This document shows positions 7,416 to 32,557 of a DNA stretch of 49,938 nucleotides, piece after piece; positions within the stretch are counted from its first letter, which is position 1; every line of letters starts with the position of its first letter. The translations under genes were made by a program, and so were the position numbers. Origin of the DNA: Candidatus Poribacteria bacterium (GTDB taxonomy: Bacteria; Poribacteria; WGA-4E; UBA9662); contig JAYZAL010000073.1 in the NCBI GenBank assembly GCA_036339735.1, positions 1 through 49,938 of the forward strand. The letters are read 5' to 3'. The notes under the pieces are model-generated. The model did not search any database, was not told where the DNA came from, and was given only the letters and a program-made list of their open reading frames with translations.

Positions 7416-8534
7416 TTATCGTTGAGCCTCCCGGATAGCGTGACATAGGTAGGTAATACCTTGTGGGATTTTTTCTACTGCACAATAGGCATATGCTAAT
7501 CGGATGGCTTTTATTGGTTCGTGCCGGCAGTGAAATGCGCTGCCAGGACTAAATCCGATACCCTTTTTCCCAGCGAGTTTCCTTAATTTATTCATGTCAG
7601 TTTCTTGAGGAAGTTCGATCCACAAGAAAAGTCCACCGCGTGGTTCAGTCCAAGTACACAGATCGCTGACATTAGAATTAAGTGTGTCGAGTACGGCTTG
7701 GCATTTAGCTTTTACGACCAAATTTGTTTTTTCTAAGTGTTCTTCCAAGTGATCAGTGAAGAATTGAGCCACGATGGCACTGGCAAGGGCACTTGTTCCT
7801 AAATCCCAGCGTCCAGAATGGATTTGGTTCCGTTGTGAGGATGAAGCTACAAAATAGCCCAACCGGACTCCAGCCCCTAAGATTTTGGAGAAAGAAGCCA
7901 CGTAAATTACTCGATTGGATGGATCTAGCTTGTATAATGAGTCTGGAGTTACATTAGGAATAAAGTCAATATCACCATAACAATCATCTTCAATAATCAA
8001 TAGATCAAATGCGTCGGCTAATTCGAGAAGTCGTTTTCGTCTATCAAGAGTCAGAATGGCTCCAGTTGGGTTCTGGTGATTAGAAGTCACATAAATTAGC
8101 CGAGGACATTTCCCTTCTACTCTTAGCCTGTTTAACTGCTGTTCAAGTGACATCATGTCCATTCCATCAGCGTAATCGAGAGGGATACCAACGATATCAG
8201 CTTCCAAGTGCTTTAATAGACCCAAAGTGCCACTATAAACAAGTTCTTCAGTAAGTACAATATCACCAGGATTCAAATAAGCACGAAATATTAAGTCTAG
8301 TGCCTGCATCGAACCAGAGGTTAGTGAAATGTTATCCACCGACAGAGGTATACCCTCTCTCCGTTGAAAGCGTCGAGAAGCGAGTTCTCTCAGTTGTAGA
8401 TTTCCGTCTTCTCCTGGATAGTTAACTAGATTACTACCGATATTCTCTAAAGCTTTGGCACTTGCAGTGATGAGTTCTTGAGTTGGAAATGTACCGGGGT
8501 CAGGTCGACCACCAGTAAAGGCAAAGTCTCTCAT
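7416..8534 (-). CDS. PLP-dependent aminotransferase class I/II (LysN/2-aminoadipate transaminase-like, no HTH)
   Basis: GGRPDP, TSGSMQALD, NHQNPTG, IIEDDCYG, SFSKILGAGVRLG, GGLFLW; ATG at 8534 preceded by GAGG. Confidence 0.88.
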   Translation of the reverse strand: MRDFAFTGGRPDPGTFPTQELITASAKALENIGSNLVNYPGEDGNLQLRELASRRFQRREGIPLSVDNISLTSGSMQALDLIFRAYLNPGDIVLTEELVYSGTLGLLKHLEADIVGIPLDYADGMDMMSLEQQLNRLRVEGKCPRLIYVTSNHQNPTGAILTLDRRKRLLELADAFDLLIIEDDCYGDIDFIPNVTPDSLYKLDPSNRVIYVASFSKILGAGVRLGYFVASSSQRNQIHSGRWDLGTSALASAIVAQFFTDHLEEHLEKTNLVVKAKCQAVLDTLNSNVSDLCTWTEPRGGLFLWIELPQETDMNKLRKLAGKKGIGFSPGSAFHCRHEPIKAIRLAYAYCAVEKIPQGITYLCHAIREAQR

Positions 8535-8721
8535 ATGACACCTCTTTGGTTTCGGGACGTTACTCAGCAATCATCGATTCTATCACGAGGATATACTAAG
8601 GTCAATTTAGGTTTTTTAATAGTTTTAATTAATATTACAGGCGTTACAGTGCCTATTAACGTTTATTTTCAATAGATACAGTTGGAATTTCAACCACAAT
8701 GAGACAAGAGGAATAATAGTA

Positions 8722-9660
8722 ATGCTGAAATGTGGAATTACAACGGATAATCGTTGTCTAGGTCATAACACAGGAGTAGGGCACCCTGAGAGATCTGATC
8801 GAATTAGGTCCTGCCTAGTTGCTATTGAACAAGCAAACCTACATCTGGTACCAGTAGAATCAGCGCCCATTAACGAAGAAGAACTAGCCTATGTTCACGC
8901 CAAGGAGCATATTGATCGAGTCTATAATCATTGTCAAACCGAAGATCCTTTAGAATATGATACACCGGTTGCCAAAGATTCTTATCAAGTCGCACTACTG
9001 TCAGTGGCAGCCGCCATCTCATTGTCAGAATCAGTTATCAATAAAACTGTTGATAATGGATTTGCGTTGATGCGCCCCCCAGGTCATCATGCGACGGCTT
9101 TTCGAGCTATGGGTTTTTGTTTGTTTAATAGTGTTGCGATTGCAACTAGGCATTTACAAAAAAAACACGGGCTAGATCGAATTGCTATAATTGACTGGGA
9201 CGTACACCATGGTAATGGAACACAAGATATTTTTTACTCAGATCCATCGGTCTTTTATTTTTCTATACATCAATCTCCATTGTATCCTGGTACTGGCTTG
9301 GTTAAAGAAAAAGGGACCGGACGGGGAGTTGGTACAACGTTGAATTGTCCAATGTCGCCTTACAGTGGAGTCTCTGATTATACGGAGAAATTTCGAAAAG
9401 TACTACAACCTCAATTGACTGAATTCAAACCAGAATTTATTTTTATTTCAGCTGGGTTTGATGCCCATGAGCGAGACCCTCTGTCTCAAATGAATATGAC
9501 TTCAGAAGGGTTTGCCGATCTGACTAAAATTGTACAGGAAATTGCTGACCAAGTCTGTCGAGGTCATATTGTTTCTGTACTAGAAGGGGGTTATGATCTA
9601 CAAGGGTTATCAACATCAGTTGTAGCTCACTTACGTCAGTTGTCTAACCAAGCTGAATAA
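8722..9660 (+). CDS. Zn-dependent histone deacetylase-family amidohydrolase
   Basis: HPE...R, RPPGHHA, GFCLFN, DWDVHHGNGTQ, SAGFDAH..DPL, LEGGY. Confidence 0.93.
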   Translation: MLKCGITTDNRCLGHNTGVGHPERSDRIRSCLVAIEQANLHLVPVESAPINEEELAYVHAKEHIDRVYNHCQTEDPLEYDTPVAKDSYQVALLSVAAAISLSESVINKTVDNGFALMRPPGHHATAFRAMGFCLFNSVAIATRHLQKKHGLDRIAIIDWDVHHGNGTQDIFYSDPSVFYFSIHQSPLYPGTGLVKEKGTGRGVGTTLNCPMSPYSGVSDYTEKFRKVLQPQLTEFKPEFIFISAGFDAHERDPLSQMNMTSEGFADLTKIVQEIADQVCRGHIVSVLEGGYDLQGLSTSVVAHLRQLSNQAE

Positions 9661-9802
9661 CAATCGCGTTATACGCTATTGAATTTTTGAGTTGGCCACT
9701 CGGTTTTTGTTTTTATTGTTGATAATGTGTATGATTGTTATAATTTGGCTTCATGTTTTCGTAGAGAAAATTGACCTGAAATCATTTAAGGGAGAGTTAA
9801 AA

Positions 9803-11134
9803 ATGAGACGTTTGCATACATCGTTTCTGTTTACTTGCCTCGCAGTATTGATCGTTTCACCGATATTGGCGATGGCTGAAAACTGGCCTTCATGGCGTGG
9901 TCCTAATTCCAATGGAGTTAGTATCGAGACCGGCATTTCCACACGCTGGACGAAAACTGAAAATGTGTCTTGGCGAGTTCCCTTACCTGGTCCAGCAGGT
10001 TCTACACCTATCATCTGGGAAGATAGGATTTTTTTAACTTCGGCTTCTGAGAACGAAGACGATCTATTATTGATATGCCTGAACTCTAGTGGTGAAAAAC
10101 TTTGGCAGAAAAAACTTGGTTCCGGCAATCGTAATGCTCGAGGTAACGAAGGTAATTGTGCCTCACCATCTCCTTGTACTGACGGTAAGTATGTATGGGC
10201 CTATGTTAGTACTGGACATATTGGTTGTTACGATTTTGAGGGTAATGAAATTTGGAAAGGGAATTTGGAAAAATGGTATGGTACCTTTGACCTTTATTTT
10301 GTGATGTCTTCTTCACCCATAGTGGATGGTGATCGGCTTTATTTGCAACTTAATCATAGTAATTTGTCTTTGCTAGATGAAGATGCTGAGCAAAAACGGA
10401 AAGAAGACCAAAAGTCGGTTGGCTTGCTCATAGCATTGAATAAAATGACAGGAGAAGAGATTTGGGTTCATGAACGTCTTAGTGATGCTCATTCAGAGTG
10501 TGAGCATTCCTATGCATCTCCTGTCTTGTATAGGGATGATAAACAAGAATTTATAGTCGTTCACGGTGCTGATTACGTTAGTGGACATCGGTTGACTGAC
10601 GGTAGTGAAATTTGGCGTTGTGGTGGATTCAACAGTAAAGCCCGTTATAATCCTAGCCTCCGTTTTGTTGCAACACCGGCCATTATACCTGGACTAATCG
10701 TAGTACCATCCGCTAAAAATGGACCTGTGATTGGTTTGAGTCCATCGGCTATAGGGCGAATAACAGAACAGTCGGATAGTCATCTTTGGAAGAGAAGTGA
10801 TAATACACCTGATGTCCCATCTCCTCTAATTCATGACGGTTTAGTTTACCTCTGCCGTGAGAATGGTGTTCTAATTTGCATGTCAGCGGACACAGGCGAG
10901 GAAATATACCAAAGACGGACTCACAACAACCGGCATCGTTCTTCCCCTATTTATGCCGATGGGAAAATTTATCTCACTTCCAGAGATGGATTAGTAACAG
11001 TGATTAAAGCTGGTAGAAATTTTGAGGTGTTGGCAAAGAATGAGATTGGTGAAGAAATATCGGCTTCGCCAGCCATTGCAGATGGTACGCTCTATTTACG
11101 TAGCTACAAAGCACTTTACGCAATTCGGAATTAA
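9803..11134 (+). CDS. Secreted PQQ-binding-like/BamB-like beta-propeller protein
   Basis: Signal peptide, ENWPSWRGP, repeated S(S/T)P...G...W blades. Start moved to the ATG at 9803 behind GGGAG. Confidence 0.85.
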   Translation: MRRLHTSFLFTCLAVLIVSPILAMAENWPSWRGPNSNGVSIETGISTRWTKTENVSWRVPLPGPAGSTPIIWEDRIFLTSASENEDDLLLICLNSSGEKLWQKKLGSGNRNARGNEGNCASPSPCTDGKYVWAYVSTGHIGCYDFEGNEIWKGNLEKWYGTFDLYFVMSSSPIVDGDRLYLQLNHSNLSLLDEDAEQKRKEDQKSVGLLIALNKMTGEEIWVHERLSDAHSECEHSYASPVLYRDDKQEFIVVHGADYVSGHRLTDGSEIWRCGGFNSKARYNPSLRFVATPAIIPGLIVVPSAKNGPVIGLSPSAIGRITEQSDSHLWKRSDNTPDVPSPLIHDGLVYLCRENGVLICMSADTGEEIYQRRTHNNRHRSSPIYADGKIYLTSRDGLVTVIKAGRNFEVLAKNEIGEEISASPAIADGTLYLRSYKALYAIRN

Positions 11135-11193
11135 ATTTAATAATTCCACTGAAGGTTATTTAATAAAATTAGGTACACGGTCGGAGGTGTAAT

Positions 11194-13368
11194 ATGCGAA
11201 TTTTGGTTTTGATGTGTTTCTTTTGCATACTAACAACTAATATTAACAGCGCTGATTGGCCGCATTGGAGAGGCCCTAATCAAAATGGAACCTCGTCAGA
11301 GATAGGCTTAATCGATCGGTGGGAAGAAAGCGGCGATCAACTATTGTGGAAGGCTGACTTTGTCGGCCGTTCAACACCTATAGTGATGAATGATAGAGTT
11401 TATGTTATAGGACGAAGTGGGCATGAGATAACTGAGCAGGAACAAATCGCTTGTTTTTCTGTAAACAATGGTGAATTACTATGGGATTATAAATTCAATG
11501 TGTTTCATACAACAATTCCTTTTAACAGAGTTGGCTGGGCAAGTCCTGTTGGAGATCCTGAAACTGGTAATGTTTATGTACATGGTGTCCAAGGTATGTT
11601 TTTTGCCTTTACTAGTGACGGAGAAAAGTTGTGGGAAAAATCTTTGACGGAGACATTTGGCCGGATTTCTGGCTACGGAGGCCGGACACACACACCATTT
11701 ATTGATGGAAATCTGGTCATCATTAGCTATCTCAACACCAGCTGGGGGAGTCAGGCCCCAGGTAGACACCGATATTTTGCCTTCGATAAGAATACCGGTG
11801 AGGTAATTTGGGTTTCCACACCTGGTGGTCCACCAAAGGATACAACTTATTCAGTACCTATTGTTACTACGATTAACGGTCGTCGCCTTCTAATAGCAGG
11901 TAATGCTGACGGATCAGTATATGCTATGGATATCCGGACAGGTAAGTCAGTTTGGAAATTTGCTCTTAGTAAACAACGGGGATTAAATGCATCCGTAGTC
12001 GCTGATGGGCATTTGATTTACGCTTCTCACGGAGAAGAAAATATTGATAATACTGTAATGGGAAGAGTCGTTTGCATCGATGGGCGGGGGGACGGAGATA
12101 TTACCCGAACCCATGAAGTCTGGCGAGTTGATGGCTGTCAAGCAGGCTATAGTTCACCTGCTTTGCATGACGGAAGATTGTATGTAGTTGATCATTCAGC
12201 CAATCTTTATGCCTTTGATTCTAAGACAGGAGACCAATATTGGATTCATAATATCGGTACAGTCGGAAAAGGTTCTCCCATCTGGGCGGATGGTAAAATT
12301 TATGTTACCGAAGTCAATGGCCATTTTCATATTTTATCAGTTGGGCCAAGTGGAGTTAAAGTTGCTAGTACTGTTCAATTGAAAGTCAACGAAAATACAA
12401 AAAAAATCGAAAAAAGAAAACAACGTTATGCTGAAATTTACGGCTCGCCAGCAGTAGCCAACGGTCGGATCTTCTTTACTACTGAAGAAGGGATTTATTG
12501 CTTAGGTTATTCAAAGCAAGCACCTGCGACTCTTCGTTTGGTTCCGGCTGAGGTTGTTGTGCGACCAGGTCAGAAACTGACTTTCGATCTACGCTCTTTT
12601 GGCAATTCAGAGGGCAACAAAGAAGGATTACCACTTCAACTCGATCAAGTCAATTGGTCTAATAAAGGTTTATCAGGCACGATTGACAGTGGCACATTAA
12701 CTCTAAATGCAGATTCTACAAGTCATTCAGGGACAATTACTGCTCAGGTGGATGGTTCTAAAGCTACCTCACGTGTTCGTGTTATAGCTCCGTTACCTTG
12801 GCTAGAAGATTTTGAACAAGTTGACTTGGATACATTTCCTACTCATTGGATTGGTGCTGGGAGCAAATTCTTTGTCCGTCAAGACGGGAACAATAGGATC
12901 TTGGTGAAACCGCCAGTCAAACGAGGACTTAATCGTTCAGTTGTTTTTATTGGTACACCCGAAATGAGCGACTACACTATACAAGTCGATCTGAAAGGTA
13001 GTAAAAACAAAAGGCGAATACCAGATATGGGATTAGTCGCAAATCGTTATATCCTAGACATGCAAGGAATTCATCAAAGATTACAAGTTCGGTCTTGGTC
13101 GTCCGACTTACGAATGGCAAAGCACATCGACTTCGAATGGGATGTCAATGTGTGGTACACAATGAAAATGCAAGTGAAGGTAGATAGTGGCCAAGCAAGA
13201 ATTAAAGGTAAAGTTTGGGTAACAGGTCAAGCAGAACCAAATGAATGGAGCATTGAAGTAATAGATCCACTAGCCAATAAAACTGGTAGCCCAGGCATTT
13301 ACGGTTATTCGTCTGCTGAAATTCAGTACGACAATCTAGAAATAAAAGCTAGCAAGGGAGAAGAGTAA
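11194..13368 (+). CDS. Secreted PQQ-like beta-propeller with C-terminal Ig-like and beta-sandwich (lectin-like) domains
   Basis: Signal peptide, DWPHWRGP, propeller repeats to about aa 440, then beta-rich domains (DYTIQVD...WYTMKMQV...GSPGIYG...YDNL). The C-terminal domain calls are inference. Confidence 0.8.
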   Translation: MRILVLMCFFCILTTNINSADWPHWRGPNQNGTSSEIGLIDRWEESGDQLLWKADFVGRSTPIVMNDRVYVIGRSGHEITEQEQIACFSVNNGELLWDYKFNVFHTTIPFNRVGWASPVGDPETGNVYVHGVQGMFFAFTSDGEKLWEKSLTETFGRISGYGGRTHTPFIDGNLVIISYLNTSWGSQAPGRHRYFAFDKNTGEVIWVSTPGGPPKDTTYSVPIVTTINGRRLLIAGNADGSVYAMDIRTGKSVWKFALSKQRGLNASVVADGHLIYASHGEENIDNTVMGRVVCIDGRGDGDITRTHEVWRVDGCQAGYSSPALHDGRLYVVDHSANLYAFDSKTGDQYWIHNIGTVGKGSPIWADGKIYVTEVNGHFHILSVGPSGVKVASTVQLKVNENTKKIEKRKQRYAEIYGSPAVANGRIFFTTEEGIYCLGYSKQAPATLRLVPAEVVVRPGQKLTFDLRSFGNSEGNKEGLPLQLDQVNWSNKGLSGTIDSGTLTLNADSTSHSGTITAQVDGSKATSRVRVIAPLPWLEDFEQVDLDTFPTHWIGAGSKFFVRQDGNNRILVKPPVKRGLNRSVVFIGTPEMSDYTIQVDLKGSKNKRRIPDMGLVANRYILDMQGIHQRLQVRSWSSDLRMAKHIDFEWDVNVWYTMKMQVKVDSGQARIKGKVWVTGQAEPNEWSIEVIDPLANKTGSPGIYGYSSAEIQYDNLEIKASKGEE

Positions 13369-13374
13369 ATCATT

Positions 13375-14847
13375 ATGAACAAAAACAGGTCACTTTTCCA
13401 ACAGTTATTTTACTTGGCTATTAATAATCTGTTGTGTTTACTTTGTTTATCAGTTGTAGCAGATCAACATCCAGCTGATCAGTCAGTTGAAACCACTATG
13501 TGGGGATTTAGCCCTGACCGAAATTTAGTTTCAGCGGAAACTAATTTACCTTCTGAATGGGATGTTGATAATGGAACTAGTATCAAATGGGTGGCTCAGC
13601 TCGGTTCTCAAAGCTATGCTGGTCCGATTATTCACCAAGGTAAAATTTTTGTTGGTACTAATAATCAGGCTGTTTACAACCCCAAACTGACAGGGGATCG
13701 TGGGGTGTTGATCGCCTTCAATGAAGATGATGGAAAGTTTCTCTGGCAAATTACACATACTAAACTTTCTGCTGGTCGGGTTAATGATTGGCCTCAGCAA
13801 GGTATCTGCTCTGCTCCTTATATTGAAGGCGATCGAATATACTATATATCTAACCGTTGCCAAGTGGTTTGTATTGATACCGAAGGGTTTCTAGATGGTG
13901 AGAATGATGGTCCTTATACCGAGGAAAGTGATACAACTCCAATTGATGGTGATATTGTTTGGATTTACGACATGATGGAAGAGTTAGATGTCTTCCCTCA
14001 TAATCTAGCAACATGCTCACCGGTTGGGGCTGGTGATCTGTTATTTGTTGAAACAAGTAACGGTGTTGATGAAGGACATATTCACATTCCGTCGCCTTTG
14101 GCCCCAAGTTTTATAGCCATAAATAAAAATGATGGTCAATTAGTTTGGGAGGACGACTCACCTGGTGAAAGTATTCTGCATGGGCAATGGTCGAATCCAG
14201 CTTATGCAATTATTAACGAGCAACCACAGGTAATTTTTCCTGGAGGTGATGGTTGGGTATATAGCTTCGAAGCTGAGACTGGAAAGTTAATTTGGAAGTT
14301 TGACTGTAACCCCAAAGATTCAGAATGGGAATTAGGAGGGCGTGGTACCCGTAATAGCATTATTGCTACACCAGTTATTTACAATAACCGCGTTTATATC
14401 GGTGTCGGTCAAGACCCTGAGCATGGAGAAGGTGAAGGCCATCTATGGGCTATCGATGCGACCCAAACGGGTGATATTACTGAGACTGGTGCGGTATGGC
14501 ATTTCGGTAATGAAGATTTTAACCGTACTATGTCTACTGTTGCCATCTATAACGGGCTTCTTTTTGTAGCCGATCTAAGTGGGTTCGTCTACTGTCTTTC
14601 AGCAGATACGGGTGAGCATTACTGGACATATGATACGTTTGGTGCAGTTTGGGGGTCAACTCTTGTTGCAGATGGAAAAGTCTATATTGGCGATGAAGAT
14701 GGAGATGTAGCTATTTTAGCCGCAAGTAAAGAGAAAAAGTTAATCTTTGAAACCAATATGGGAAGTGCCGTTTATACGACTCCAATACCTCACGATGGCG
14801 TTCTCTATATTGTCAGTCGTAATAAGCTTTTCGCAATCGAAAAATAA
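13375..14847 (+). CDS. Secreted acidic PQQ-like beta-propeller protein
   Basis: Hydrophobic leader, IKWVAQLGSQSY, repeated G.L.W blades, DGKVYIGDEDG; starts 6 bp after the previous gene. Confidence 0.85.
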   Translation: MNKNRSLFQQLFYLAINNLLCLLCLSVVADQHPADQSVETTMWGFSPDRNLVSAETNLPSEWDVDNGTSIKWVAQLGSQSYAGPIIHQGKIFVGTNNQAVYNPKLTGDRGVLIAFNEDDGKFLWQITHTKLSAGRVNDWPQQGICSAPYIEGDRIYYISNRCQVVCIDTEGFLDGENDGPYTEESDTTPIDGDIVWIYDMMEELDVFPHNLATCSPVGAGDLLFVETSNGVDEGHIHIPSPLAPSFIAINKNDGQLVWEDDSPGESILHGQWSNPAYAIINEQPQVIFPGGDGWVYSFEAETGKLIWKFDCNPKDSEWELGGRGTRNSIIATPVIYNNRVYIGVGQDPEHGEGEGHLWAIDATQTGDITETGAVWHFGNEDFNRTMSTVAIYNGLLFVADLSGFVYCLSADTGEHYWTYDTFGAVWGSTLVADGKVYIGDEDGDVAILAASKEKKLIFETNMGSAVYTTPIPHDGVLYIVSRNKLFAIEK

Positions 14848-14875
14848 AGTTTATCAACATAAGGAGATTAATAAA

Positions 14876-15967
14876 TTGTCAGCCCACCAAGCATTCAATC
14901 AAAGTGAAGCCGAGCAAAAAGCCCGAGAAGACCTTGATGCACATGTTAGACATGTGATTAACTGCCACTTTGATCCGAAAAAAGGCACACCATTTTGGTT
15001 AGAATATGCTGAAAAACTTGAATTTGACCCAAGAGATAAGATTTTGAGTTACCAAGATCTTAAATTGCTGGGGCATTTTGAAGATGAATGGTTACGAGGA
15101 GGGCCTATTCGGCGATGGGTTCCAAAATCGATGGAACACCTACCGACCTACGTTTTTGAAACTGGGGGCTCTACTGGTCTTCCAAAGTCTCGTATTAGTA
15201 TTCGAGATTTCCAAATTGATTACGAGATGTTCAGTGAACACTTGTCGGCTGAGACCTTCCCGCTTGGTAGTGATTGGTTAATGCTTGGTCCTAGTGGGCC
15301 TCGCCGTTTACGATTAGCCGTTGAGCATTTAGCACAGATACGAGGAGGGGTGTGTTTTTTAGTTGACTTAGACCCGCGTTGGGTGGGGAAATTAGTCAAG
15401 CAAGGAAAACATCAAGAATTTGAGGCATATCGTGATCATGTGATACACCAAGCATTACAATTGCTAAAAGCTCATGAAAATATTAGTTGTCTCTTTACGA
15501 CACCCAAACTATTAGAAGCCCTATGCGAAAAGATTTCACTCAATAAAGTTGGTATTACCGGCATTTTCTGTGGAGGAACAGAGATGAATGCTCAGTTTAA
15601 TCGATTTGCTAGAGAGGAGTTAGTGCCAGGTATTGACTTCGTTCCCACATACGGAAATACGCTAATGGGACTGGCTTACTCTAAAGCATTTGATCCTGCT
15701 GACGAGTATTCAATTACATACTATCCACCACAACCTAGAGCAGTAATCGAACTCGTTGAACCTGATAATCCTGAACATGTAGTAGACTATAATCAAACGG
15801 GTCGTGTAATGTTAACTACATTGACTGAGGAATTTTTTATGCCTCGATTCTTAGAACGTGATGAAGCCGAACGTGCCCGACCGATTTCAGATTTTCCTTG
15901 GGATGGCGTTCGGGACTTGAGGCTGTTCTCTGAATTGCAAGAGAGTGTTTCAGTAGGTGTATATTGA
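14876..15967 (+). CDS. EhpF/GriC-like adenylate-forming enzyme (ANL superfamily, short form)
   Basis: HF...GTPFW, FETGGSTGLPK P-loop, DLDPRWV, TTPKLL, GGTE, YGNT, PRFLERD and C-terminal GVY, matching my recollection of EhpF. TTG start at 14876 behind AAGGAG gives 363 aa. Confidence 0.8.
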   Translation: MSAHQAFNQSEAEQKAREDLDAHVRHVINCHFDPKKGTPFWLEYAEKLEFDPRDKILSYQDLKLLGHFEDEWLRGGPIRRWVPKSMEHLPTYVFETGGSTGLPKSRISIRDFQIDYEMFSEHLSAETFPLGSDWLMLGPSGPRRLRLAVEHLAQIRGGVCFLVDLDPRWVGKLVKQGKHQEFEAYRDHVIHQALQLLKAHENISCLFTTPKLLEALCEKISLNKVGITGIFCGGTEMNAQFNRFAREELVPGIDFVPTYGNTLMGLAYSKAFDPADEYSITYYPPQPRAVIELVEPDNPEHVVDYNQTGRVMLTTLTEEFFMPRFLERDEAERARPISDFPWDGVRDLRLFSELQESVSVGVY

Positions 15968-16252
15968 AGTAATAAGAATAGTAATCGCATAAGCTTGATA
16001 TGCCCAGTGATTTGTCCCAAACCAATTTGGTACTGGTGAATTGTATTTTGATCAAGACAGATTGGCAACCGTTTATTCGAGTCCTACATGAATGATTCGG
16101 AGAGTGTGCACTGATGAATCTTTTTCCCGTTTTTGTCGCTGTTCTTAGTATTCATTTAACCAATATTCTCTTTATAAAGTTCCGTTGTTAGGAAAAATGA
16201 GTCCTGTGGTAAAATCCGAGCTGAATATTCCGTATGAAAGGAGTTATTACTT

Positions 16253-16577
16253 TGGAGATTCATATTGCCAAAGTCAGGCTTTTAGGACTGTCGTACTAAA
16301 ACTGTGAGACGACTACAATTGAACTTAGCTCAATTTGTTATCAGAAAATGACTCAATCTCTCGCTCCGATCAGTTAATGGTATGTTTATTCCTTATTTCG
16401 TCGTTGGTCCTAATTTTGGATTTATCGGTCTAAGACCTAAATAATAATGTAAATTTCTGTCAGTATTAAACTGATCTAATTCAAGTCAATGCAATTTGTC
16501 CAGAAGTCTCTAACATTTCAATCAAATAATTTAGTCATTTTAGGCACTGATTTGGCTTAGTACTGGAGATTCATATT
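16253..16577 (+). repeat. 14-bp direct repeat TGGAGATTCATATT (16253-16266 and 16564-16577)
   Basis: Exact copies 311 bp apart, with similar upstream flanks (TTATTACTT vs TTAGTAC). Confidence 0.7.
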
Positions 16578-16687
16578 TGGATTCATGAGAGAAAATAAAC
16601 AAGGGGTGTTTTCTCTGTTCACTTCGAGAAACCAAACAATTCATCTGTCCTAACGCTTGGTCAAAATTAACTACTCCATCAACCGGT

Positions 16688-16727
16688 CTTCCACAACAGT
16701 TCTGTTGGTTATCAACTGTTGTGGAAG
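16688..16727. repeat. Perfect 14-bp inverted repeat (hairpin)
   Basis: CTTCCACAACAGTT - 12 nt loop - AACTGTTGTGGAAG; extendable by CCATCA/TGATGG across a bulge. Confidence 0.85.
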
Positions 16728-17234
16728 GTGATGGTCTGAACGGGAAATACTCCAGTCCGACTGTAATTCGGCATGTCATTTCTATCGATCAGATCATTAA
16801 CAAAACACATGGTAGGAAAAATAGAACTGGATTTTGAATCTGTGTGCCATCTGTGTTAGTACGGCTCGTCCATAATCTCTGCGTTTTTGCTTTGACAAGC
16901 CATAAGTATAAGCTTCTCTGTAATTCAGTACAAGTGGTGCTAATTGTTCGACAAAGGTAACAACTCAAAAATATTGCGTTGTTGTAGTAACAAACCTGCC
17001 TGAGTTATTTAAAATATTGAAAAATACGTTTTGTATTTACCATTTTTTTAAACTAATATTAGTATCTATAAGGCCAATGTCGAAGATCAAATCTACCGAT
17101 GTAATAGAGTTAGGGAGATTGGGATTTGATTGAGTAAATGAAGTAACAGACGTAAAGTTCAGAGTTGACTAGATTTTTCTCCACTTCATCGAAAACGATT
17201 AGGTAGCTCAGATTCATAAGACAAAGTAGCATTG

Positions 17235-18046
17235 ATGATTACAATAACGCAGCAGAAACAATATAAAGAAGATGGATATTTCATTGTTAGGAATTTGGTC
17301 GATCCCTTGATCATAACTGAAATTAAGGACACTATTCTTGATTTTATCGACAATCCAGGAAATCTAAAAAAGTTCTCGACCTAGAGTTAGTTGTCCATAA
17401 AGGGAAAGGGGAGCACCTCACTCATAAAGAAAAGTTCCGTAAGCTACAACAACTAGGAAGACACAGACCCAAAGTTGGAATAATTATTATGCAGATCCTA
17501 ATGTTTTATCAGTAGTTCGATCGTTATTAGGAGATAATTTGTTGGTCAAATATGACTCGGTATTCCTCAAACCTGCCAGAACAGGAGGCGCTACACCGTG
17601 GCATCAAGATATCGGCCGGCCTATGGCGAGATGACCACGTTGAAGCAGCTAACACATGGGTTGCTATCGACCCGGCTACTAAGGAAAATGGCTGTATGCA
17701 GTTTTTACCAGCTAGCCATCACGAAGGTTTAATTGACCACGTTTTGTATGAGGATAGCCTGCATCGAGAACTCCCGCGTGAGTTCGCAGCCAATCTAGAA
17801 GGTGTAATCGATATAGAACTTGAACCTGGGGACGTTGTTTTTTGGCACTCTTATATGTGGCACTACAGCCCGCCCAATGTTAGTGATCATAGCAGAATTG
17901 GTATGGGAGCAGTCTGGGTTGATTGGAAGCAATCTCAAACTTCACCGAAAGAATATTTTTGGGTAATGAAAGATGGAATAGCACTTACTTACCCACCAGA
18001 GAAATTAATTGTGAATGATGAGAAATATGACCCTTCTTTCAAGTAA
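17235..18046 (+). pseudogene. PhyH-family dioxygenase pseudogene with three frameshifts
   Basis: MITITQQKQYKEDGYFIVRNL start; shift near the A6 run at 17366-17371; shift near 17475; FLKPARTGGATPWHQD; 4-bp duplication CGGC at 17613-17620; then WVAIDPATKENGCMQFLPASH...WHYSPPN..R. Confidence 0.85.
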
Positions 18047-18280
18047 AACAGGTAAGATGAATCAATTTCACATAAAATATGACAGAGAGCATGGCAGAAG
18101 GTTTCTAATTTACCAAACAAAAAACTTTTACTATTCAGTTATAACAGAGAATTTACTGTAGTCTGAGGTAAATTAATAGTAACTAATAAAAAGAGAACCT
18201 GATTTCCTGAAAGGTTATCTGTGGCAATTATTGGCTACAACTGACTTACCACAGGTTCAATGAAACTATAGGAGAATCAA

Positions 18281-19702
18281 ATGTTGCACATCCCCTTACT
18301 GAGAGCTGGTCAACCTTACGAAAGCCTTTCCACTGTCGAAGTAGAACATAGCCAAAATGGAGAACCAATGGCAGTGATGAGTTTAGCTAATCGAGGGTTG
18401 ATTTCACGGGATATGCTAAATCAAGCTCAACGCAAGCGCGATCTGGACCAATTCTCCGTTGCTGAGTTAATTGAAATTAGCAGCAAAGCTGGCCAATACT
18501 TTTTGACAGCTGATTTGCAAATAGGGGACCAGAATCAATCCCCCCAAGATTATGTTGATCAATTATCTGCATCAACAGGTGTTCCAAAAACATTATGTAG
18601 TCAGAATATGAATAAAATCGCCACTGTCCTGAAAAATGTCGCCGAAGTGCTAGGAGGCCTGAGCCGTGGACTAGACTTATCCATTCTGGATCAAGGGTGG
18701 GGAAAACAGCATGGTCGAATGATTGGTTACTTATGTAGTACCAATAGCCTAGGTGGGATTTTACCGAGCAATTCTGCTGGTGTCCATTCTCTCTGGGTAC
18801 CTTCTATCGCTTTAAAAGTTCCATTAGTATTGAAACCTGGAAGTACCGAACCATGGAGTCCTTACCGAATTGCACAAGCTTTTATTAAGGCTGGCTGCCC
18901 TTCTTCAGCTTTTAGTTTATACCCAACTTCATATGACGGCGCCACGGAGATTTTGCTTCGAGCAGGACGTTCGGTACTTTATGGTAGTGAATCAACTGTT
19001 GCTCCTTGGAGATCAGACCCTCGTGTTCAAATCCATGGAACTGGTTGGAGTAAAATTTTAGTTGGAGAAGACACGATTGATAGTTGGAAAGATTATCTTG
19101 ATTTGATGATAACGTCAGTTAGCCAAAACAGTGGTAGATCATGTATAAACACTTCTAGTATTTGGGTTCCATCACAGGGCCGAAAAATTGCCACAGCACT
19201 GGCAGAGAAGTTAAGTGATATTGCCCCGCTTCCTCTAGATCACCCAAAAGCTAAGCTATCGGCTTTTGCTAATCCGAAAGTAGCCCATCAGCTACAGTCA
19301 ATGATCGAAAGACATCTTAAAACGCCTGGAGCGGTTGACATCTCGAATCAAGTTTTCGGCCAACCGACATTAGTCGAATCCAACGGCTATACTTTTTTAC
19401 AACCCAAGGTTATATATTGCATTGACCCTAGTCATCCACTAGCTAACACTGAAATGCTATTTCCATTCGTTAGCGTGGTCGAAACACCACAATCAGATAT
19501 GCTGGACCAAATTGGCTCAACATTGGTAGCAACAGCCTTAACAGAAACTCAAAATTGGATAGACGACCTACTTCACTGTTCACACATTGATCGGCTAAAC
19601 CTAGGAGCGATTCCTACAAACCAGATTTCTTGGGACCAACCCCACGAAGGTAACTTGTTTGAACTACTGTACCGACAACGTGCGATGCAGGCAATAGCCT
19701 GA
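18281..19702 (+). CDS. Aldehyde dehydrogenase-fold protein (EhpG/GriD-like acyl reductase candidate)
   Basis: LPSNS, LKPG..EPW, HGTGWSK, catalytic Cys in SGRSCINTS, EMLFPF, QPHEGNL; AGGAG RBS. Confidence 0.8.
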   Translation: MLHIPLLRAGQPYESLSTVEVEHSQNGEPMAVMSLANRGLISRDMLNQAQRKRDLDQFSVAELIEISSKAGQYFLTADLQIGDQNQSPQDYVDQLSASTGVPKTLCSQNMNKIATVLKNVAEVLGGLSRGLDLSILDQGWGKQHGRMIGYLCSTNSLGGILPSNSAGVHSLWVPSIALKVPLVLKPGSTEPWSPYRIAQAFIKAGCPSSAFSLYPTSYDGATEILLRAGRSVLYGSESTVAPWRSDPRVQIHGTGWSKILVGEDTIDSWKDYLDLMITSVSQNSGRSCINTSSIWVPSQGRKIATALAEKLSDIAPLPLDHPKAKLSAFANPKVAHQLQSMIERHLKTPGAVDISNQVFGQPTLVESNGYTFLQPKVIYCIDPSHPLANTEMLFPFVSVVETPQSDMLDQIGSTLVATALTETQNWIDDLLHCSHIDRLNLGAIPTNQISWDQPHEGNLFELLYRQRAMQAIA

Positions 19703-20035
19703 AAAATAAAGGACAATTTATAGAAGACAATGCGAAACTTCTGGACTTAAAAGTTTAAACCTGAGTACCAGTCTTGTTGCTACTGAAACTTATCATGTGT
19801 TAACTTTGACTTGAAACTAGTCTCAGGAAACGAAAACCAGATTTCGACTTACTGATGCCAAGTGTTTATTGTTCAGAGATCTACGGCAAATTAATAACTA
19901 GAGTGTAGCTAAAAAAGATTACCTCAGCGAACAAACTATTCCTGTAGGAGTCAACTTCCAGCAAGGTTTAGAGTAACAAAACTTTATCTTTTCAGACTAT
20001 CCGTTAAGACAATGAAGTCTGGTTCCGATTCGAAT

Positions 20036-20977
20036 TTAGCCCCAACTGCTGGTTTTCCAATAAGAAGATGGTGTTTGGTACTGTTCATGCTTGAGAGGTA
20101 AAAACTGTCGCAGGTGCCGATTTCCATATGCGAATCCTTCTAGGCCAGGAAGTCCCCGATCCTCGTTTTCAACACAAAGAACATAGTCATAGCCTGACTC
20201 CAATAAAGCGCCAATTATAGTCCCCCAATTTAATTGGCCTCGACCAGGCAACCGATACTGCCACCACCAATTTCCGATAATACCTTGTCTGTACAGCATT
20301 CGAGTGCTTATCTCACAGTCTTTAACATCAGCGTAAAACCACTTTCCCGCATAATCGCGGATAACATCTTCAACGGGTGTAATCATCATCCATAACCAAT
20401 GGGATGGGTCACAAGACAACCCCAAATATGGTGATGGTACAGCGGTCATCACTTTTTCCCACATCTCCGGATTACAGGCGATATTACCCATACGAACGGC
20501 CACATCAAGAGCTATTTTGACTTGAACTGATTCCGCGACTTCTACCACCGGCTCAAACATCTTTTTAAAACGTTCAACCAACTCAATAGACCGATCACTA
20601 GTATTGCCGGGAGGAGAAGAATACATACCATAAAACTGACCATTTCTTACTGGCGCTCCGCTACCAGTAACAACTACCGGACATCCAAGCAAACTCGCGG
20701 ATCTAATTGCCTTTATTAGTCTTTTTTGTTCTGCTTCTGCGATGTTTTTATCATCATCCAGTAAGTTGCAATGCGAAGTGATCGCGGCCAAATATAGATG
20801 ATGATTCGATAGAATTGTATTTACTTGATCTGGCCCCGTTTCCAAGATTTCTTCTGAATTAAGAACACCATTATCAGCCAGTCGAACACAATCAAAATCG
20901 TTGGCCTCGGCCCACTCAGCGCAAGACGTTAAGCTCCAAGAGTTTCCTCCAGCAGCAGTTTGGAAGCTAATATCCAT
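20036..20977 (-). CDS. Sugar phosphate isomerase/epimerase (xylose isomerase-like TIM barrel)
   Basis: GLSCDPSHW, DVKD, YRLPGRGQLNW, LCVENED. Confidence 0.8.
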   Translation of the reverse strand: MDISFQTAAGGNSWSLTSCAEWAEANDFDCVRLADNGVLNSEEILETGPDQVNTILSNHHLYLAAITSHCNLLDDDKNIAEAEQKRLIKAIRSASLLGCPVVVTGSGAPVRNGQFYGMYSSPPGNTSDRSIELVERFKKMFEPVVEVAESVQVKIALDVAVRMGNIACNPEMWEKVMTAVPSPYLGLSCDPSHWLWMMITPVEDVIRDYAGKWFYADVKDCEISTRMLYRQGIIGNWWWQYRLPGRGQLNWGTIIGALLESGYDYVLCVENEDRGLPGLEGFAYGNRHLRQFLPLKHEQYQTPSSYWKTSSWG

Positions 20978-22163: not shown

Positions 22164-23669
22164 TTATTCAAGTCTATATTGATAAACTGTCAGGCTGGAC
22201 CACATGCGGTTAACATAAGGGTTATGATAAAATTTTTTGGCTAATGTTTTTCTATCTCCGATAACTTCAGATGGTAATGCACTACCGATCGCGATCCAAT
22301 CTGAATTTTGGTCTAATTGTTTTTTTAGATTAAATTCTCCTTCTTGTTGTACAACCAAGTATTTAGCATTAAAACCTTGAGCACTTAAATAGTATTTGAT
22401 CAATGGAACTGAGATAATTTGAATTGGTTTATGGTAATCGTTGTTTACTTGTTTAAGGTGCTCGTATATTTGAGCTATGGCTGTCGGTTCTTTATGTTGA
22501 CTAACTAGATGAAAACTTACCAAAGTATAACTGGCCAGTCCAAGTATTAATATCTCTTTAAATAGAAAGTTTAACCAAGTTCTACTTGTATTTTCTATAA
22601 TTCGAGTCAAACAAATTGCTACAAATAAAGCTGCAAATGGTAAAAGGGGCAAAACATGTCTACTTTTGTGAATGATATTTTGAAAATAAAAAATCCAGAT
22701 AAGGTATGCTAAGCAGCTTAACATTGCTGTTTGGGCAAAATTACTTATTTTAACTGGTATTCTGGGTTTGGATTTAATAAAAGAAACACAAACTAAAAGC
22801 GATAAACAAACGGTTGGTATAACCGTAGTCAAATCGCGTCCTAACCAATAGAAACCTAATCCATCCGCCCAAACACTTTCAATCAATCTCTCAGTCCTAC
22901 GGGCATAATTGGACTCAGTAGTGATAGTTCCACCAAAATCAGTAAAATGCCCATGGCTTTGTATTCTTGCAGAGTCAATTAATTCAGTCCAGCCAGTCAT
23001 GGAAATCAAAGGGAAAAGCCAGGTAGAAATACCAAATATCCCAGATGTAGCCAGCTGATACCACTTTAGCTTTTTTTCTTTAGTCGAAAATAGATTCGTC
23101 ACCAACAAGGGGAACAGAAAAGGCGTGTAGGATAAACGGACGCCAAGTAGAATACCAGTCAAAAAAAAACCAATTAGACTATTATAATTGGTTTTTGTAT
23201 TATTAGGCTGGAGATAATAGAAACAAGACATCATGCAAGCAACTCCCATCATATCGGGCATATAACGGTTACTCATTAACCAAAAAAGAGGATTAAACGT
23301 AGAGAAGAAAATAACAAGGGCTCCAAGTAGTGATGTCAGCTGAATATTTGCGGATCGGATCAAGAAAAAAATGGTAAGGAAAGTTGAAAATGCTCCAACA
23401 ATAGAAAAAGCAACTGTGTAACGACCAATAAGCTGATATACCAATTTAGTTATAAAACAAAAAACCGGATAGGCTGGGAAGTGGGGTTGATTTTTGACTA
23501 CATTATAGTCGATCATTGACAAAGCGAAGCGAAGGCTATCTAAATCTTCAATATAATAGATAGTACTCCAAAGCCGAGAAACCAATAGCAATATTAGTAG
23601 TAGCCACCATGCGATCGTCGTTTTTTTCATATTACTCAATAGAGTTTTGGATGCTCTGTTCATTTTCAC
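22164..23669 (-). CDS. Polytopic membrane protein, probable GT-C fold glycosyltransferase
   Basis: About 10-12 TM helices, acidic first loop EDLDSLRFA followed by PHFPAYP, late RHVLPLLP motif. Confidence 0.6.
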   Translation of the reverse strand: MKMNRASKTLLSNMKKTTIAWWLLLILLLVSRLWSTIYYIEDLDSLRFALSMIDYNVVKNQPHFPAYPVFCFITKLVYQLIGRYTVAFSIVGAFSTFLTIFFLIRSANIQLTSLLGALVIFFSTFNPLFWLMSNRYMPDMMGVACMMSCFYYLQPNNTKTNYNSLIGFFLTGILLGVRLSYTPFLFPLLVTNLFSTKEKKLKWYQLATSGIFGISTWLFPLISMTGWTELIDSARIQSHGHFTDFGGTITTESNYARRTERLIESVWADGLGFYWLGRDLTTVIPTVCLSLLVCVSFIKSKPRIPVKISNFAQTAMLSCLAYLIWIFYFQNIIHKSRHVLPLLPFAALFVAICLTRIIENTSRTWLNFLFKEILILGLASYTLVSFHLVSQHKEPTAIAQIYEHLKQVNNDYHKPIQIISVPLIKYYLSAQGFNAKYLVVQQEGEFNLKKQLDQNSDWIAIGSALPSEVIGDRKTLAKKFYHNPYVNRMWSSLTVYQYRLE

Positions 23670-25057: not shown

Positions 25058-25384
25058 ATGATACCTGGAGAACTGATTGTGGCCGAAGGCCACATTACTA
25101 TCAATGAAAATCGGAGAACCTCTGAGATCGAAGTTACTAACGTTGGCGACCGACCAATTCAGGTAGGTTCGCATTTTCATTTTTTTGAAGTTAACTCGGG
25201 GCTAATTTTTGATCGTGAGTTAGCATATGGAATGCGATTGGATATTCCATCGGGTGTAGCTGTTAGGTTTGAACCCGGAGATAGTAAGACTGTAACCTTG
25301 GTTGAGTTAAAGGGTAAAGGTGTTGTCTACGGCTTAAATAATAAAGTTAATGGACCATTAGACCTAAATAGGAGTAGCAAATAA
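25058..25384 (+). CDS. ureB: Urease subunit beta
   Basis: [39 protein letters not shown]. Confidence 0.97.
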
Positions 25385-27090
25385 TGCGAATCTCAAAAAA
25401 AGCTTATGCAGATATCTATGGCCCGACCGTTGGAGACAAGGTGCGATTAGCCGATACAGAATTGGTTATCGAAGTTGAGAAGGATTATACCACATATGGC
25501 GAGGAATCTAAGTTTGGTGGTGGAAAGACCTTACGTGACGGGATGGGGCAAGCACCTGACGCCACGCGAGCCAACGGAGCCGTTGATTTAGTTATTACTA
25601 ACGCCTTAATACTAGATCATTGGGGTATTGTGAAAGCAGATATTGGTATTCGTGATGGGCAGATTGTTGGTATAGGCAAATCTGGCAACCCAAATATTAT
25701 GGATGGAGTCGATATTGTAGTTGGAGCTTCAACAGAAGTGTTAGCTGGAGAGGGCATGATTACAACTGCGGGAGGGATCGATGCACACATTCACTTCATC
25801 TGTCCCCAGCAGATTGATGAAGCTATTTCCTCTGGAGTTACCACCATGATTGGTGGTGGAACTGGTCCTGCCACTGGAACCAACGCGACTACTTGTACAC
25901 CAGGAGCATGGAATATCAGTAGAATGTTAGAGGCAGTAGAAGGCTTTCCTATTAATTTCGGATTTCTAGGGAAGGGAAATTCTTCTATGCCAGAAGCGTT
26001 GAATGAGCAAGTCGAAGCAGGTGCTATTGGTTTAAAGTTACACGAAGACTGGGGGACAACACCGGCTACTATTGATTGTTGCTTGAGTGTGGCTGAGACT
26101 TTCGATGTTCAAGTTGCTATCCATACCGATACACTCAACGAATCTGGGTTTGTAGAAGATTCAATTTCAGCTTTCAAAGGCAGAACCATTCACACCTATC
26201 ATACAGAAGGAGCTGGAGGTGGTCATGCGCCTGATATCATTAAGGTGTGTGGTGAAAGTAACGTTTTACCGTCTTCTACCAATCCAACACGTCCCTTTAC
26301 TATCAATACTATTGATGAGCATCTAGACATGTTAATGGTCTGCCATCATCTTGACGCATCAATCCCCGAAGACTTGGCTTTCGCAGAATCCCGTATTCGA
26401 TCTGAGACCATCGCGGCCGAAGATATTTTACATGACCTTGGGGCTCTCAGTATGATCGCTTCTGATTCTCAAGCAATGGGTCGTGTTGGAGAAGTTATTA
26501 GTCGAACTTGGCAAACAGCTCATAAAATGAAGGTTCAGAGAGGCACATTGAGTGAGGAAATAGGTAATAATGACAATTTTCGAGCAAAACGCTATGTGGC
26601 AAAATACACCATCAATCCGGCTATAGCTCATGGTATTTCGAACCATGTCGGATCAGTCGAGGTTGGTAAAATGGCTGATTTAGTAATTTGGCAGCCAGCG
26701 TTTTTTGGTGTTAAACCGCAATTAATTATCAAAGGAGGTTTCATCGTTTGGGCGGCCATGGGGGACGCTAATGCTTCAATTCCAACGCCACAGCCGGTTT
26801 TGGGGAGACCAATGTTTGGAGCTTTCGGTCGTGCACCATATACATGTTCTGCTAGTTTTTTATCGCTTGCTGGAGTAGAAAATAACATTAGTGATCATCT
26901 GAAACTACAGAAACGAATTTTACCCGTCTCTAATTGCAGAAACATTAATAAAGCATCAATGATTCATAATGCATATACTCCTCAAGTAACAGTTAATCCA
27001 GAGACCTACGAAGTCCGTGCAGATGGAGAACATTTAGTTTGTGCCCCGGCAGAAGTGCTACCAATGGCACAACGTTACTTTTTATTTTAG
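25384..27090 (+). CDS. ureC: Urease subunit alpha
   Basis: [64 protein letters not shown]. Confidence 0.98.
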
Positions 27091-29817: not shown

Positions 29818-29843
29818 ATTTAGTTGTATGTAGTGAGGGAAAA

Positions 29844-31391: not shown

Positions 31392-31434
31392 ATCTTAAAC
31401 AATGACGTTTGTGTGAGTACCGGAGGTTGAATCA

Positions 31435-31647: not shown

Positions 31648-31656
31648 ACAAGTAAT

Positions 31657-32547: not shown

Positions 32548-32557
32548 GGAAACTTGA

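Follow-up and report, generated by a model that had tools for sequence, protein, structure and literature searches.

Introduction

Type I carboxylic acid reductases, of the A-PCP-R architecture (Car/Lys2), convert an acid to the aldehyde at the expense of ATP and NADPH. A carrier-free hand-off is found in LuxE and LuxC, from an ANL-type synthetase of around 370 aa to a reductase with the aldehyde dehydrogenase (ALDH) fold and a catalytic cysteine. EhpF has the atypical architecture of an N-domain only, lacking the ANL C-terminal domain, and in ACSF4/AASDH, which is cytoplasmic, an adenylation domain is fused to a propeller resembling those of pyrroloquinoline quinone (PQQ) enzymes. The genes ehpF and ehpG adjoin in the phenazine operon of Proteus, according to the part of PMC11278526 dealing with that operon, and the passage of PMC10179220 on GriC and GriD, citing Suzuki 2007, has the former adenylating 3-amino-4-hydroxybenzoic acid (3,4-AHBA) and the latter reducing it to the aldehyde. 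Here we describe a gene pair of this kind, encoding an EhpF-like enzyme and an ALDH-fold protein, in a Candidatus Poribacteria bacterium (contig JAYZAL010000073.1 of assembly GCA_036339735.1, positions 1 to 49,938; this whole stretch of 49,938 nt is hereafter the window). The window carries a reduced copy of a widespread, uncharacterised operon, in which the pair is linked to genes for propeller proteins.

An EhpF-like enzyme and an ALDH-fold protein

The genes and signals with which the analysis is chiefly concerned are as follows.

9803 to 11134, + strand: prop1, a predicted exported BamB-fold propeller of 443 aa counted from its ATG, the open reading frame (ORF) being open from 9692 (Pfam PQQ_2, E 2.9e-19)
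11194 to 13368, + strand: prop2, a predicted exported propeller with an immunoglobulin-like domain and a C-terminal jelly-roll domain, 724 aa (Pfam PQQ_2, E 3.3e-36)
13375 to 14847, + strand: prop3, a predicted exported eight-bladed propeller of 490 aa, immediately 5' of the EhpF-like gene (Pfam PQQ_2, E 6e-26)
14861 to 14866, + strand: Shine-Dalgarno-like AAGGAG, 9 nt 5' of the EhpF-like TTG at 14876 (sequence inspection)
14876 to 15967, + strand: putative EhpF/GriC-type stand-alone adenylating enzyme with an ANL N-domain only, 363 aa, TTG start (PDB EhpF, E 1.4e-37)
18281 to 19702, + strand: EhpG/GriD-type ALDH-fold protein of 473 aa, intact, the presumed NAD(P)H-dependent reductase partner (similarity to ehpF-adjacent ALDHs)

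An earlier note, made from the letters of the window, had described a 363-aa EhpF-type enzyme lying 28 bp after a run of propeller genes. That spacing, from the prop3 stop at 14847 to the TTG, is correct, and all of the motifs it quoted are present: GTPFW at residue 37, ETGGSTG at 95, DLDPRWV at 164, GGTE at 233 and GVY at the C-terminus. Comparison with EhpF itself showed homology over the full length of the protein, a phmmer search of the PDB aligning residues 18-350 with residues 21-355 of the EhpF chains 3hgu and 3l2k (E 1.4e-37). The P-loop, of the form (S/T)GG(S/T)TGxPK, reads ETGGSTGLPK from residue 95 where EhpF has ESGGTTGAPK, and is invariant in an alignment of the family (A1). The match to Pfam AMP-binding stops at position 372 of the 384 in the profile and is followed by no AMP-binding_C match, so that the N-domain-only organisation of EhpF is shared, and the orthologues among the matches listed are 353-390 aa long. 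By analogy, the EhpF-like protein would adenylate a carboxylate with ATP.

The next intact gene on the same strand had been called an atypical ALDH, and this description holds. Its product has a weak match to Pfam Aldedh (E 1.3e-12), and the best ordinary ALDH in the PDB scores just 31 bits against it, as compared with 134, 124 and 102 bits for the ALDHs encoded after EhpF-like genes on plasmids of Burkholderia, Streptomyces and Halalkalicoccus respectively. BLASTP against the ehpF-adjacent ALDH on the Escherichia coli plasmid NZ_CP076707 gave an end-to-end alignment, with 24% identity over 467 aa (119 bits, E 1e-33); this plasmid has an ehp-type phenazine cluster, with gene lengths of 1062 and 1371 nt that match ehpF and ehpG of the Proteus operon. 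By these scores, the protein groups with the ALDH partners of EhpF-like genes and not with the ordinary enzymes. Its family is large, 7922 of the 8000 scored candidates passing.

In oxidative ALDHs, a general-base Glu at the position before GxGxS hydrolyses the thioester. This position is occupied by His in 63 orthologues of the window protein and by Q, Y, R or L in four plasmid partners, and never by Glu. The catalytic Cys (in GRSC) and the motif HG.G.SK are invariant in the same 63 orthologues, the Cys is retained by the four plasmid partners too, the Asn is also kept, and the window protein carries every invariant residue of its family. Since the oxidative Glu has been replaced whilst the catalytic Cys is retained, reduction of an acyl-enzyme fits better than release of an acid, and the protein is presumed, by analogy with GriD, to reduce an activated acid to the aldehyde with NAD(P)H.

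Structure prediction supports the two proteins binding one another. A complex of the EhpF-like and ALDH-fold proteins scored 0.77 in each of three runs, a model and not a measurement, against 0.00 for the best of three controls. Of 157 solved complexes 116 attained the mark used, as did 2 of 215 mismatched pairs, a calibration that is rough only, since custom alignments were used for the prediction (A1, with 25 rows, and A4, with 29). Contact agreement between runs was at least 82%, and the predicted local distance difference test (pLDDT) of the partner at least 91. The modelled interface brings residues 177-183, 211-218, 238-249 and 277-278 of the EhpF-like protein against 15-46, 222-226 and 242 of the ALDH, and hence takes in the N-terminal segment of the latter. 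The score is unlikely to reflect memory of a solved complex, because by sequence the PDB holds only ordinary ALDHs, and EhpF alone.

Conservation of the locus across phyla

The locus was surveyed using one genome per GTDB species, which gave at least 600 matching stretches and, among these, at least 585 confirmed loci; the best 80 were examined with 10 kb flanks. These comprised 48 from Poribacteria, 16 from Latescibacterota, five from Gemmatimonadota, three from Calditrichia, three of Acidobacteriota type and five others, and the best-matching locus was in a Candidatus Poribacteria metagenome-assembled genome. Linkage was counted by tblastn with the window proteins, a prop3 orthologue being a match of at least 55% identity. 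A prop3 orthologue lies upstream of the EhpF-like gene, on the same strand, in 71 of the 76 loci with at least 3 kb of upstream sequence; a prop2 orthologue is upstream in 66 of the 71 with at least 6 kb. An ALDH gene is found downstream in 62 of the 67 loci with at least 3 kb on that side. The gap between the EhpF-like and ALDH genes, in the 66 loci with an ALDH, is within 106 bp in 16 cases and 245-7514 bp in the remaining 50. Some propeller is present in 78 of the 80 loci. The departures are few: in L040 the EhpF-like gene stands isolated; in L002, L017, L028 and L067 no ALDH is within reach; and L050, L061, L066 and L070 have different upstream genes, yet carry other propellers beside the pair. 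The order of prop2, prop3, EhpF-like and ALDH genes recurs in at least five phyla, and is not due to chance.

The earlier note had tied the pair to all three of the propellers in the window. This stands for prop2 and prop3, which are conserved partners, but not for prop1: a 75% identical orthologue is found only in L001, the closest relative, the other loci having just paralogue-level matches of around 25%. prop1 is, on these identities, a lineage-specific extra copy. The two findings that would have told against the proposal, as stated beforehand, were an absence of conserved linkage and a grouping of the ALDH with ordinary oxidative enzymes; neither was observed. The neighbourhood comparison which it had suggested shows instead propeller, EhpF-like and ALDH genes occurring together across phyla without phz genes. 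Nor does the window contain phz or griH/griI genes, as the note had said: families of the phz (PhzA/B, PhzF, isochorismatase, anthranilate synthase) and griH/griI types are absent from the 38 scanned ORFs, out of 40 of at least 120 aa in the window, the other two being antisense shadows, and the gene families that recur in the 80 loci likewise include none of phz, ehp or gri type.

The EhpF-like family is both large and tight. All 8000 of the scored candidates pass E 1e-3, with 73-95% identity for the 120 listed, and the relatives in the 80 loci are 70-84% identical to the window protein. A search of representative sequences returned 1362 proteins at E <= 1e-3, 826 at 1e-10 and 247 at 1e-30, and in a 50%-identity library there was one full-length representative at 66%, the next of full-length size being at 49% and 39-42%. 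The propeller-linked clade would therefore be nearly a single 50% cluster within a small superfamily. A quickly computed tree (LG+G4, SH-aLRT support only) places this clade, itself tight, on a long branch apart from EhpF, GriC-like and haloarchaeal proteins; the outgroups have very long branches, so the root and the direction of transfer were not inferred. The matches to plasmids by tblastn, in 29 records, were all below 40% identity.

Thirteen 'fusion' proteins (P0121-P0133), of which nine join EhpF to an ALDH, three a propeller to EhpF and one another combination, were considered as Rosetta-stone evidence and rejected. They are singletons with truncated or frame-broken domains, probably neighbouring genes merged by assembly errors, and restate the adjacency only.

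Two further gene arrangements were observed within Poribacteria clusters. In nine loci (L004, L005, L012, L015, L016, L018, L019, L022 and L034), a defence-like pair lies between the prop2 and prop3 orthologues on the same strand, consisting of an AAA_15/AAA_21 ATPase (125/420 bits for the MADS ATPase MAD3, below the cut-off) and a protein with a weak, below-cut-off match to DUF4276. In 32 loci, the ALDH gene is immediately preceded by a 233-aa ORF that weakly resembles Vgb_lyase (E 2.2e-7, under the cut-off; for example at 11941-12642 of L037); this ORF is absent from the window.

Larger operons in other lineages

Clustering of the ORFs in the 80 loci revealed a longer recurrent order: prop2, prop3, EhpF-like, ALDH-like, Fe-alcohol dehydrogenase, a fourth propeller and a HemN-like radical S-adenosylmethionine (SAM) enzyme. 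The fourth propeller, of around 370-420 aa, scores 203 bits on Pfam Beta-prop_ACSF4 (cut-off 133), and the HemN-like enzyme does not reach the cut-off of the NCBIfam models for HemN, HemW or HutW. Often found 3' of the radical SAM gene are a further propeller, a TonB-dependent receptor (249 bits on the NCBIfam TonB-siderophore model, cut-off 223.5) and a PaaK-like ligase; a halogenase-like FAD enzyme occurs in a single locus, L047. The counts below cover loci whose sequence continues for 4 kb or more past the ALDH gene, and are lower bounds, antisense shadow ORFs having displaced some genes.

Fe-alcohol dehydrogenase: at least 15 of 20 loci outside Poribacteria; at least 14 of 33 in Poribacteria
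Fourth propeller: at least 17 of 20 outside; at least 9 of 33 in Poribacteria
Radical SAM enzyme: at least 16 of 20 outside; at least 8 of 33 in Poribacteria
Further propeller: at least 9 of 20 outside; at least 1 of 33 in Poribacteria
TonB-dependent receptor: at least 8 of 20 outside; at least 0 of 33 in Poribacteria
PaaK-like ligase: at least 5 of 20 outside; at least 2 of 33 in Poribacteria

The description of the pair as an orphan therefore does not really fit, as most loci outside Poribacteria have a longer, tightly packed operon with the Fe-alcohol dehydrogenase, fourth propeller and radical SAM genes. In the compact operons (for instance L047, L058 and L065), genes abut or overlap by a few bases, and those for predicted exported and predicted cytoplasmic proteins alternate, across gaps or overlaps of this size, in what would be a single transcription unit.

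The propeller proteins

The three propeller genes of the window are co-oriented, on the + strand, as originally described. Their products all exceed the Pfam cut-off for PQQ_2, are around 20-28% identical to one another and have a hydrophobic N-terminal leader; all three lack a lipobox (first 40 residues) and a CxxCH haem c motif. A hydrophobic N-terminal segment was counted in 61 of 62 prop3 orthologues, 27 of 28 of prop2 and 26 of 30 of the fourth propeller, and, in the cytoplasmic set, in 1 of 81 EhpF-like proteins, 7 of 63 ALDHs, 2 of 35 Fe-alcohol dehydrogenases and none of 25 radical SAM enzymes. These counts come from a crude test of hydrophobicity and not from a signal-peptide predictor; they suggest that the propellers are exported.

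AlphaFold2 models were obtained for prop3 (pLDDT 83.7, predicted TM-score 0.84) and prop2 (pLDDT 80.6), the latter being a propeller to around residue 440 with beta domains after it. BamB was the top PDB match of both in a fold search (TMq 0.59 for prop3), followed by PQQ alcohol dehydrogenases and tetrathionate hydrolase. Assignment to these families was tried and rejected at the level of sequence. The NCBIfam BamB models gave prop1-3 37-70 bits against cut-offs of 285 and 423 (TIGR03300: 46, 64 and 70 bits, cut-off 285), and the PQQ-dependent alcohol/glucose dehydrogenase model TIGR03075 gave 20, 46 and 50 bits (cut-off 480), with Pfam PQQ covering single blades.

The orthologues of prop3 are 58-77% identical across phyla, and alignment A2, at 60-78%, has around 129 invariant columns, amongst them the motifs GRVNDWP, ENDGP, NGVDE.H and DPEHGE. 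Such conservation is unusually high for an exported protein and suggests a specific site. Those of prop2 are 44-70% identical over the 80 loci. Residues 535-724 at the C-terminus of prop2 have no Pfam match at E < 0.01, and the Atlas clusters matching this domain by its features carry automatic names of the 3-keto-disaccharide-hydrolase-like kind, which give a lead only. In 34 Poribacteria loci, two ORFs take the place of a single prop2 orthologue, the first, for the propeller, of around 440 aa and the second of around 306-353 aa (for example at 5940-8185 of L020). The second ORF corresponds to the C-terminal domains, being 53% identical to window positions 12532-13344; as the ORF family f11, it too gave nothing in Pfam at E < 0.01, and automatic cluster names only in the Atlas.

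The insert between the pair and the rest of the window

In the window, 2.3 kb without an intact gene (15968-18280) separate the EhpF-like gene from the ALDH gene, and only fragments of a PhyH gene were found there, in different frames.

15968 to 17219, no strand assigned: spacer of 1.25 kb without a recognisable gene or RNA (no match in Pfam, Rfam or by blastx to the locus ORFs)
17220 to 18046, + strand: frameshifted pseudogene of the PhyH family of Fe/2-oxoglutarate dioxygenases (Pfam PhyH)

Positions 66-115 of the PhyH profile match in the frame of 17443-17631, and positions 119-212 in that of 17531-18043. When ten stop-to-stop frames of the spacer were compared with Pfam, E values below 0.01 were obtained only for PhyH-type families (PhyH and 2OG-FeII_Oxy_5), in two frames, and Rfam gave no match at E <= 0.1 over 15900-18350. 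The GC content of 16001-18000 is lower, at 0.38. The pseudogene is 35-40% identical to intact PhyH genes beside Latescibacterota clusters, and PhyH-family genes recur beside or inside the cluster, including near those of Poribacteria; a second such gene, intact, lies in the window at 2714-3496 on the + strand, around 12 kb upstream. L001 lacks the insert, its EhpF-like and ALDH genes being 8-21 bp apart. A promoter and terminator scan of 8500-20100 was uninformative, with 33 promoter-like and 10 terminator-like hits against 28.6 and 7.7 in shuffled sequence.

Elsewhere, the window holds a complete-looking Pup-proteasome cluster (28060-34800, + strand), made up of an AAA ATPase with proteasomal OB domains, two genes of the Pup-ligase family and two proteasome subunits. 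A urease alpha-subunit gene (25384-27090, + strand) has no adjoining ORF of at least 120 aa for other subunits or accessory proteins, smaller ORFs lying outside the scan, and a 501-aa ORF on the - strand (22164-23669) has no Pfam match at E <= 1e-5. A sulfatase and sugar-acid enzymes are also encoded.

A possible pathway and its alternatives

We propose that the EhpF-like enzyme would use ATP to turn a carboxylate into the acyl-adenylate, and that the acyl group would be passed directly to the bound ALDH-fold partner, with neither a carrier protein nor coenzyme A. There it would form a thioester on the conserved Cys and be reduced by NAD(P)H to the aldehyde, which in the fuller operons could be taken on to the alcohol by the Fe-alcohol dehydrogenase. 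That the pair is a reductase appears very probable. The prop2 and prop3 genes would be co-transcribed with it and their products would form parts of the same pathway; we lean, with some reserve, towards such a common pathway for pair and propellers. In outline, cytoplasmic enzymes would convert a small acid, probably an aromatic or heteroaromatic one, to an aldehyde or alcohol, which would be exported and then used, bound or further processed by the propellers in the periplasm. The homologies, the catalytic-residue pattern, the conservation of gene order and the modelled complex are results; the chemistry and the direction in which it runs are inferred, as are the kind of substrate, any part played by the propellers and the export of these proteins.

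Taken as a whole, this biosynthetic interpretation is given a probability of about 0.5. Four considerations favour it: with the exception of the haloarchaeal copy, the annotated relatives of the pair lie in clusters for aromatic natural products, with DAHP synthase, anthranilate/aminodeoxychorismate synthase or polyketide synthase (PKS) genes; the reaction spends both ATP and reducing power; the accessory genes resemble those of tailoring enzymes (HemN-like radical SAM, PaaK-like ligase, PhyH and halogenase-like); and the siderophore-type receptor suggests re-uptake of a secreted molecule. Several observations weigh in the other direction. Genes for aromatic-acid precursors (phz, griH/I, DAHP synthase) are absent from the window, and none recurs as a family in the loci, nor does any exporter recur in the 80. 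The Fe-alcohol dehydrogenase, fourth propeller, radical SAM, receptor and ligase genes are all missing from the window and L001 loci, being either dispensable or elsewhere in those genomes. Export of the propellers is judged from the crude count of hydrophobic segments, and the models of prop2 and prop3 match just generic BamB or PQQ-type propellers, giving no functional lead. The linkage counts cover the best 80 of at least 585 loci, which are those most like the query. Clusters in Poribacteria often hold unrelated inserts, such as a sulfatase, a thiamine pyrophosphate enzyme, the Vgb-lyase-like gene or the defence-like ATPase pair, and co-regulation there may be loose. Finally, a Na+/solute symporter gene adjoins the pair in Halalkalicoccus and is the last gene of the cluster in L039, an arrangement which suits uptake and catabolism.

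The symporter belongs to the alternative that survives best, though we still regard it as rather unlikely: that the propellers, with the TonB receptor in those loci that have one, trap or process a compound from outside the cell, and that the imported carboxylate is reduced by the pair and the Fe-alcohol dehydrogenase for assimilation or detoxification. It would account for the siderophore-type receptor, found in at least 8 of the 20 loci outside Poribacteria, as well as for the sulfatases, M19 dipeptidase, creatininase and LamG proteins amongst the Poribacteria neighbours, and it is in keeping with the likeness of the prop2 C-terminal domain to the 3-keto-disaccharide-hydrolase-like clusters, in so far as that lead can be followed. 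However, spending ATP and NAD(P)H on the reduction of a carboxylate is, in general biochemistry, unusual for catabolism; all of the annotated relatives bar the haloarchaeal one are in biosynthetic clusters; and neither receptor nor symporter is present in the window or in most of the Poribacteria loci.

A more specific form of the biosynthetic proposal, which is speculative and on present evidence doubtful, is that the operon makes, or salvages and tailors, a small aromatic aldehyde or alcohol (a cofactor or metallophore) needed by the exported BamB-fold propellers; the HemN-like radical SAM enzyme could modify the molecule further in the fuller operons. If true, this would make the propellers a new class of periplasmic proteins that depend on a cofactor, comparable with the PQQ quinoproteins, and one that spans Poribacteria, Latescibacterota, Gemmatimonadota, Acidobacteriota and Calditrichia.

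It is improbable that the pair and the propellers have separate functions and lie side by side simply through descent or block transfer. The tree of EhpF-like proteins does mix phyla, Latescibacterota being found with Gemmatimonadota and the window and L001 proteins inside a Latescibacterota group, and as the set differs by just 16-30%, block transfer could explain a common order; Poribacteria also tolerate many insertions in the cluster, and PQQ_2 paralogues are numerous in these phyla, with extra copies in the flanks. Against this, order and strand have been kept despite inserts as long as 7.5 kb, the compact operons have propeller and enzyme genes that adjoin directly or overlap, and it is specific orthologues of prop3 and prop2 that recur, not arbitrary paralogues. 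Moreover, other propellers adjoin the pair in the four loci lacking upstream prop2 and prop3 (L050, L061, L066 and L070).

Lastly, the suggestion that the ALDH oxidises an aldehyde whilst the EhpF-like enzyme activates an acid that goes into an amide or ester, neither acting as a reductase, is highly improbable: on two Streptomyces plasmids, the gene after an EhpF-like one with the annotation 'arylcarboxylate reductase' does encode a type I PKS and not an ALDH, so that other acceptors are possible, and Pfam shows a generic Aldedh domain only, but the general-base Glu (its role and numbering being those commonly given for ALDHs) is replaced in the 63 orthologues and four plasmid partners, genes for an acceptor, a carrier or a condensation step do not recur in the loci, and the GriC/GriD precedent, as the published description gives it, is reductive.

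The interest of the finding lies partly in the propellers. Few exported families of Poribacteria, Latescibacterota and neighbouring phyla have expanded as far as the PQQ_2-type propellers or are so poorly understood, and prop2 and prop3 gain a fixed genetic partner with predictable chemistry, which opens their function to experiment. Carboxylate reductases of the EhpF/EhpG or GriC/GriD type would extend beyond rare antibiotic clusters, with at least 585 species-level loci in this tight family and thousands of 90%-identity clusters for both proteins of the pair. A carrier-free, highly conserved two-protein carboxylate reductase would also be of interest for biocatalysis, and its important residues should map easily.

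Comparison with described systems

The closest counterpart is EhpF/EhpG, from the phenazine cluster for D-alanylgriseoluteic acid, which the window pair resembles in the order of adenylating enzyme followed by ALDH, in the length of EhpF and in its N-domain-only architecture; the identities are low, at around 33% for the EhpF-like protein and 24% for the ALDH, and unlike that cluster, the window has no phz or ehp genes. GriC/GriD, as far as its published description goes, follows the same two-protein logic of an AMP-forming activator and an ALDH-fold reductase that together convert an aryl acid to the aldehyde, and the products of Streptomyces plasmid genes with the annotation 'arylcarboxylate reductase' share 32-35% identity with the EhpF-like protein of the window; here the difference is the absence from the window of griH/griI-type genes. 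In four of the six annotated plasmid contexts, the ALDH gene is directly 3' of the EhpF-like gene, and the linkage to exported propellers is missing from all six. On plasmid 2 of Halalkalicoccus jeotgali (6508-10566 of L084), a Na+/solute symporter, an EhpF-like gene (37% identity) and an ALDH gene lie in a row with no propellers, an archaeal module in an uptake-like context.

The resemblance to LuxE/LuxC lies, by analogy, in the logic of a carrier-free hand-off. The window ORFs have no match to Pfam LuxE or LuxC at E <= 0.01, and a gene for the LuxD transferase is absent. Type I carboxylic acid reductases differ from the window pair in possessing a carrier domain and a reductase domain of the short-chain dehydrogenase/reductase type, the reductase here being of the ALDH fold. 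ACSF4/AASDH, like the operon, combines an ANL module with a PQQ-like propeller, but the propellers of the operon are separate, leader-bearing proteins, and those of the window, unlike the fourth propeller, score below the Beta-prop_ACSF4 cut-off. With BamB and the PQQ dehydrogenases, prop2 and prop3 have a fold in common, prop3 having invariant loop motifs of its own. Full-text literature searches found no description of an EhpF-like/ALDH pair linked to propellers. The kind of enzyme pair is known, and what these searches did not find described is its tight, cross-phylum linkage to predicted exported propellers without phenazine or AHBA genes.

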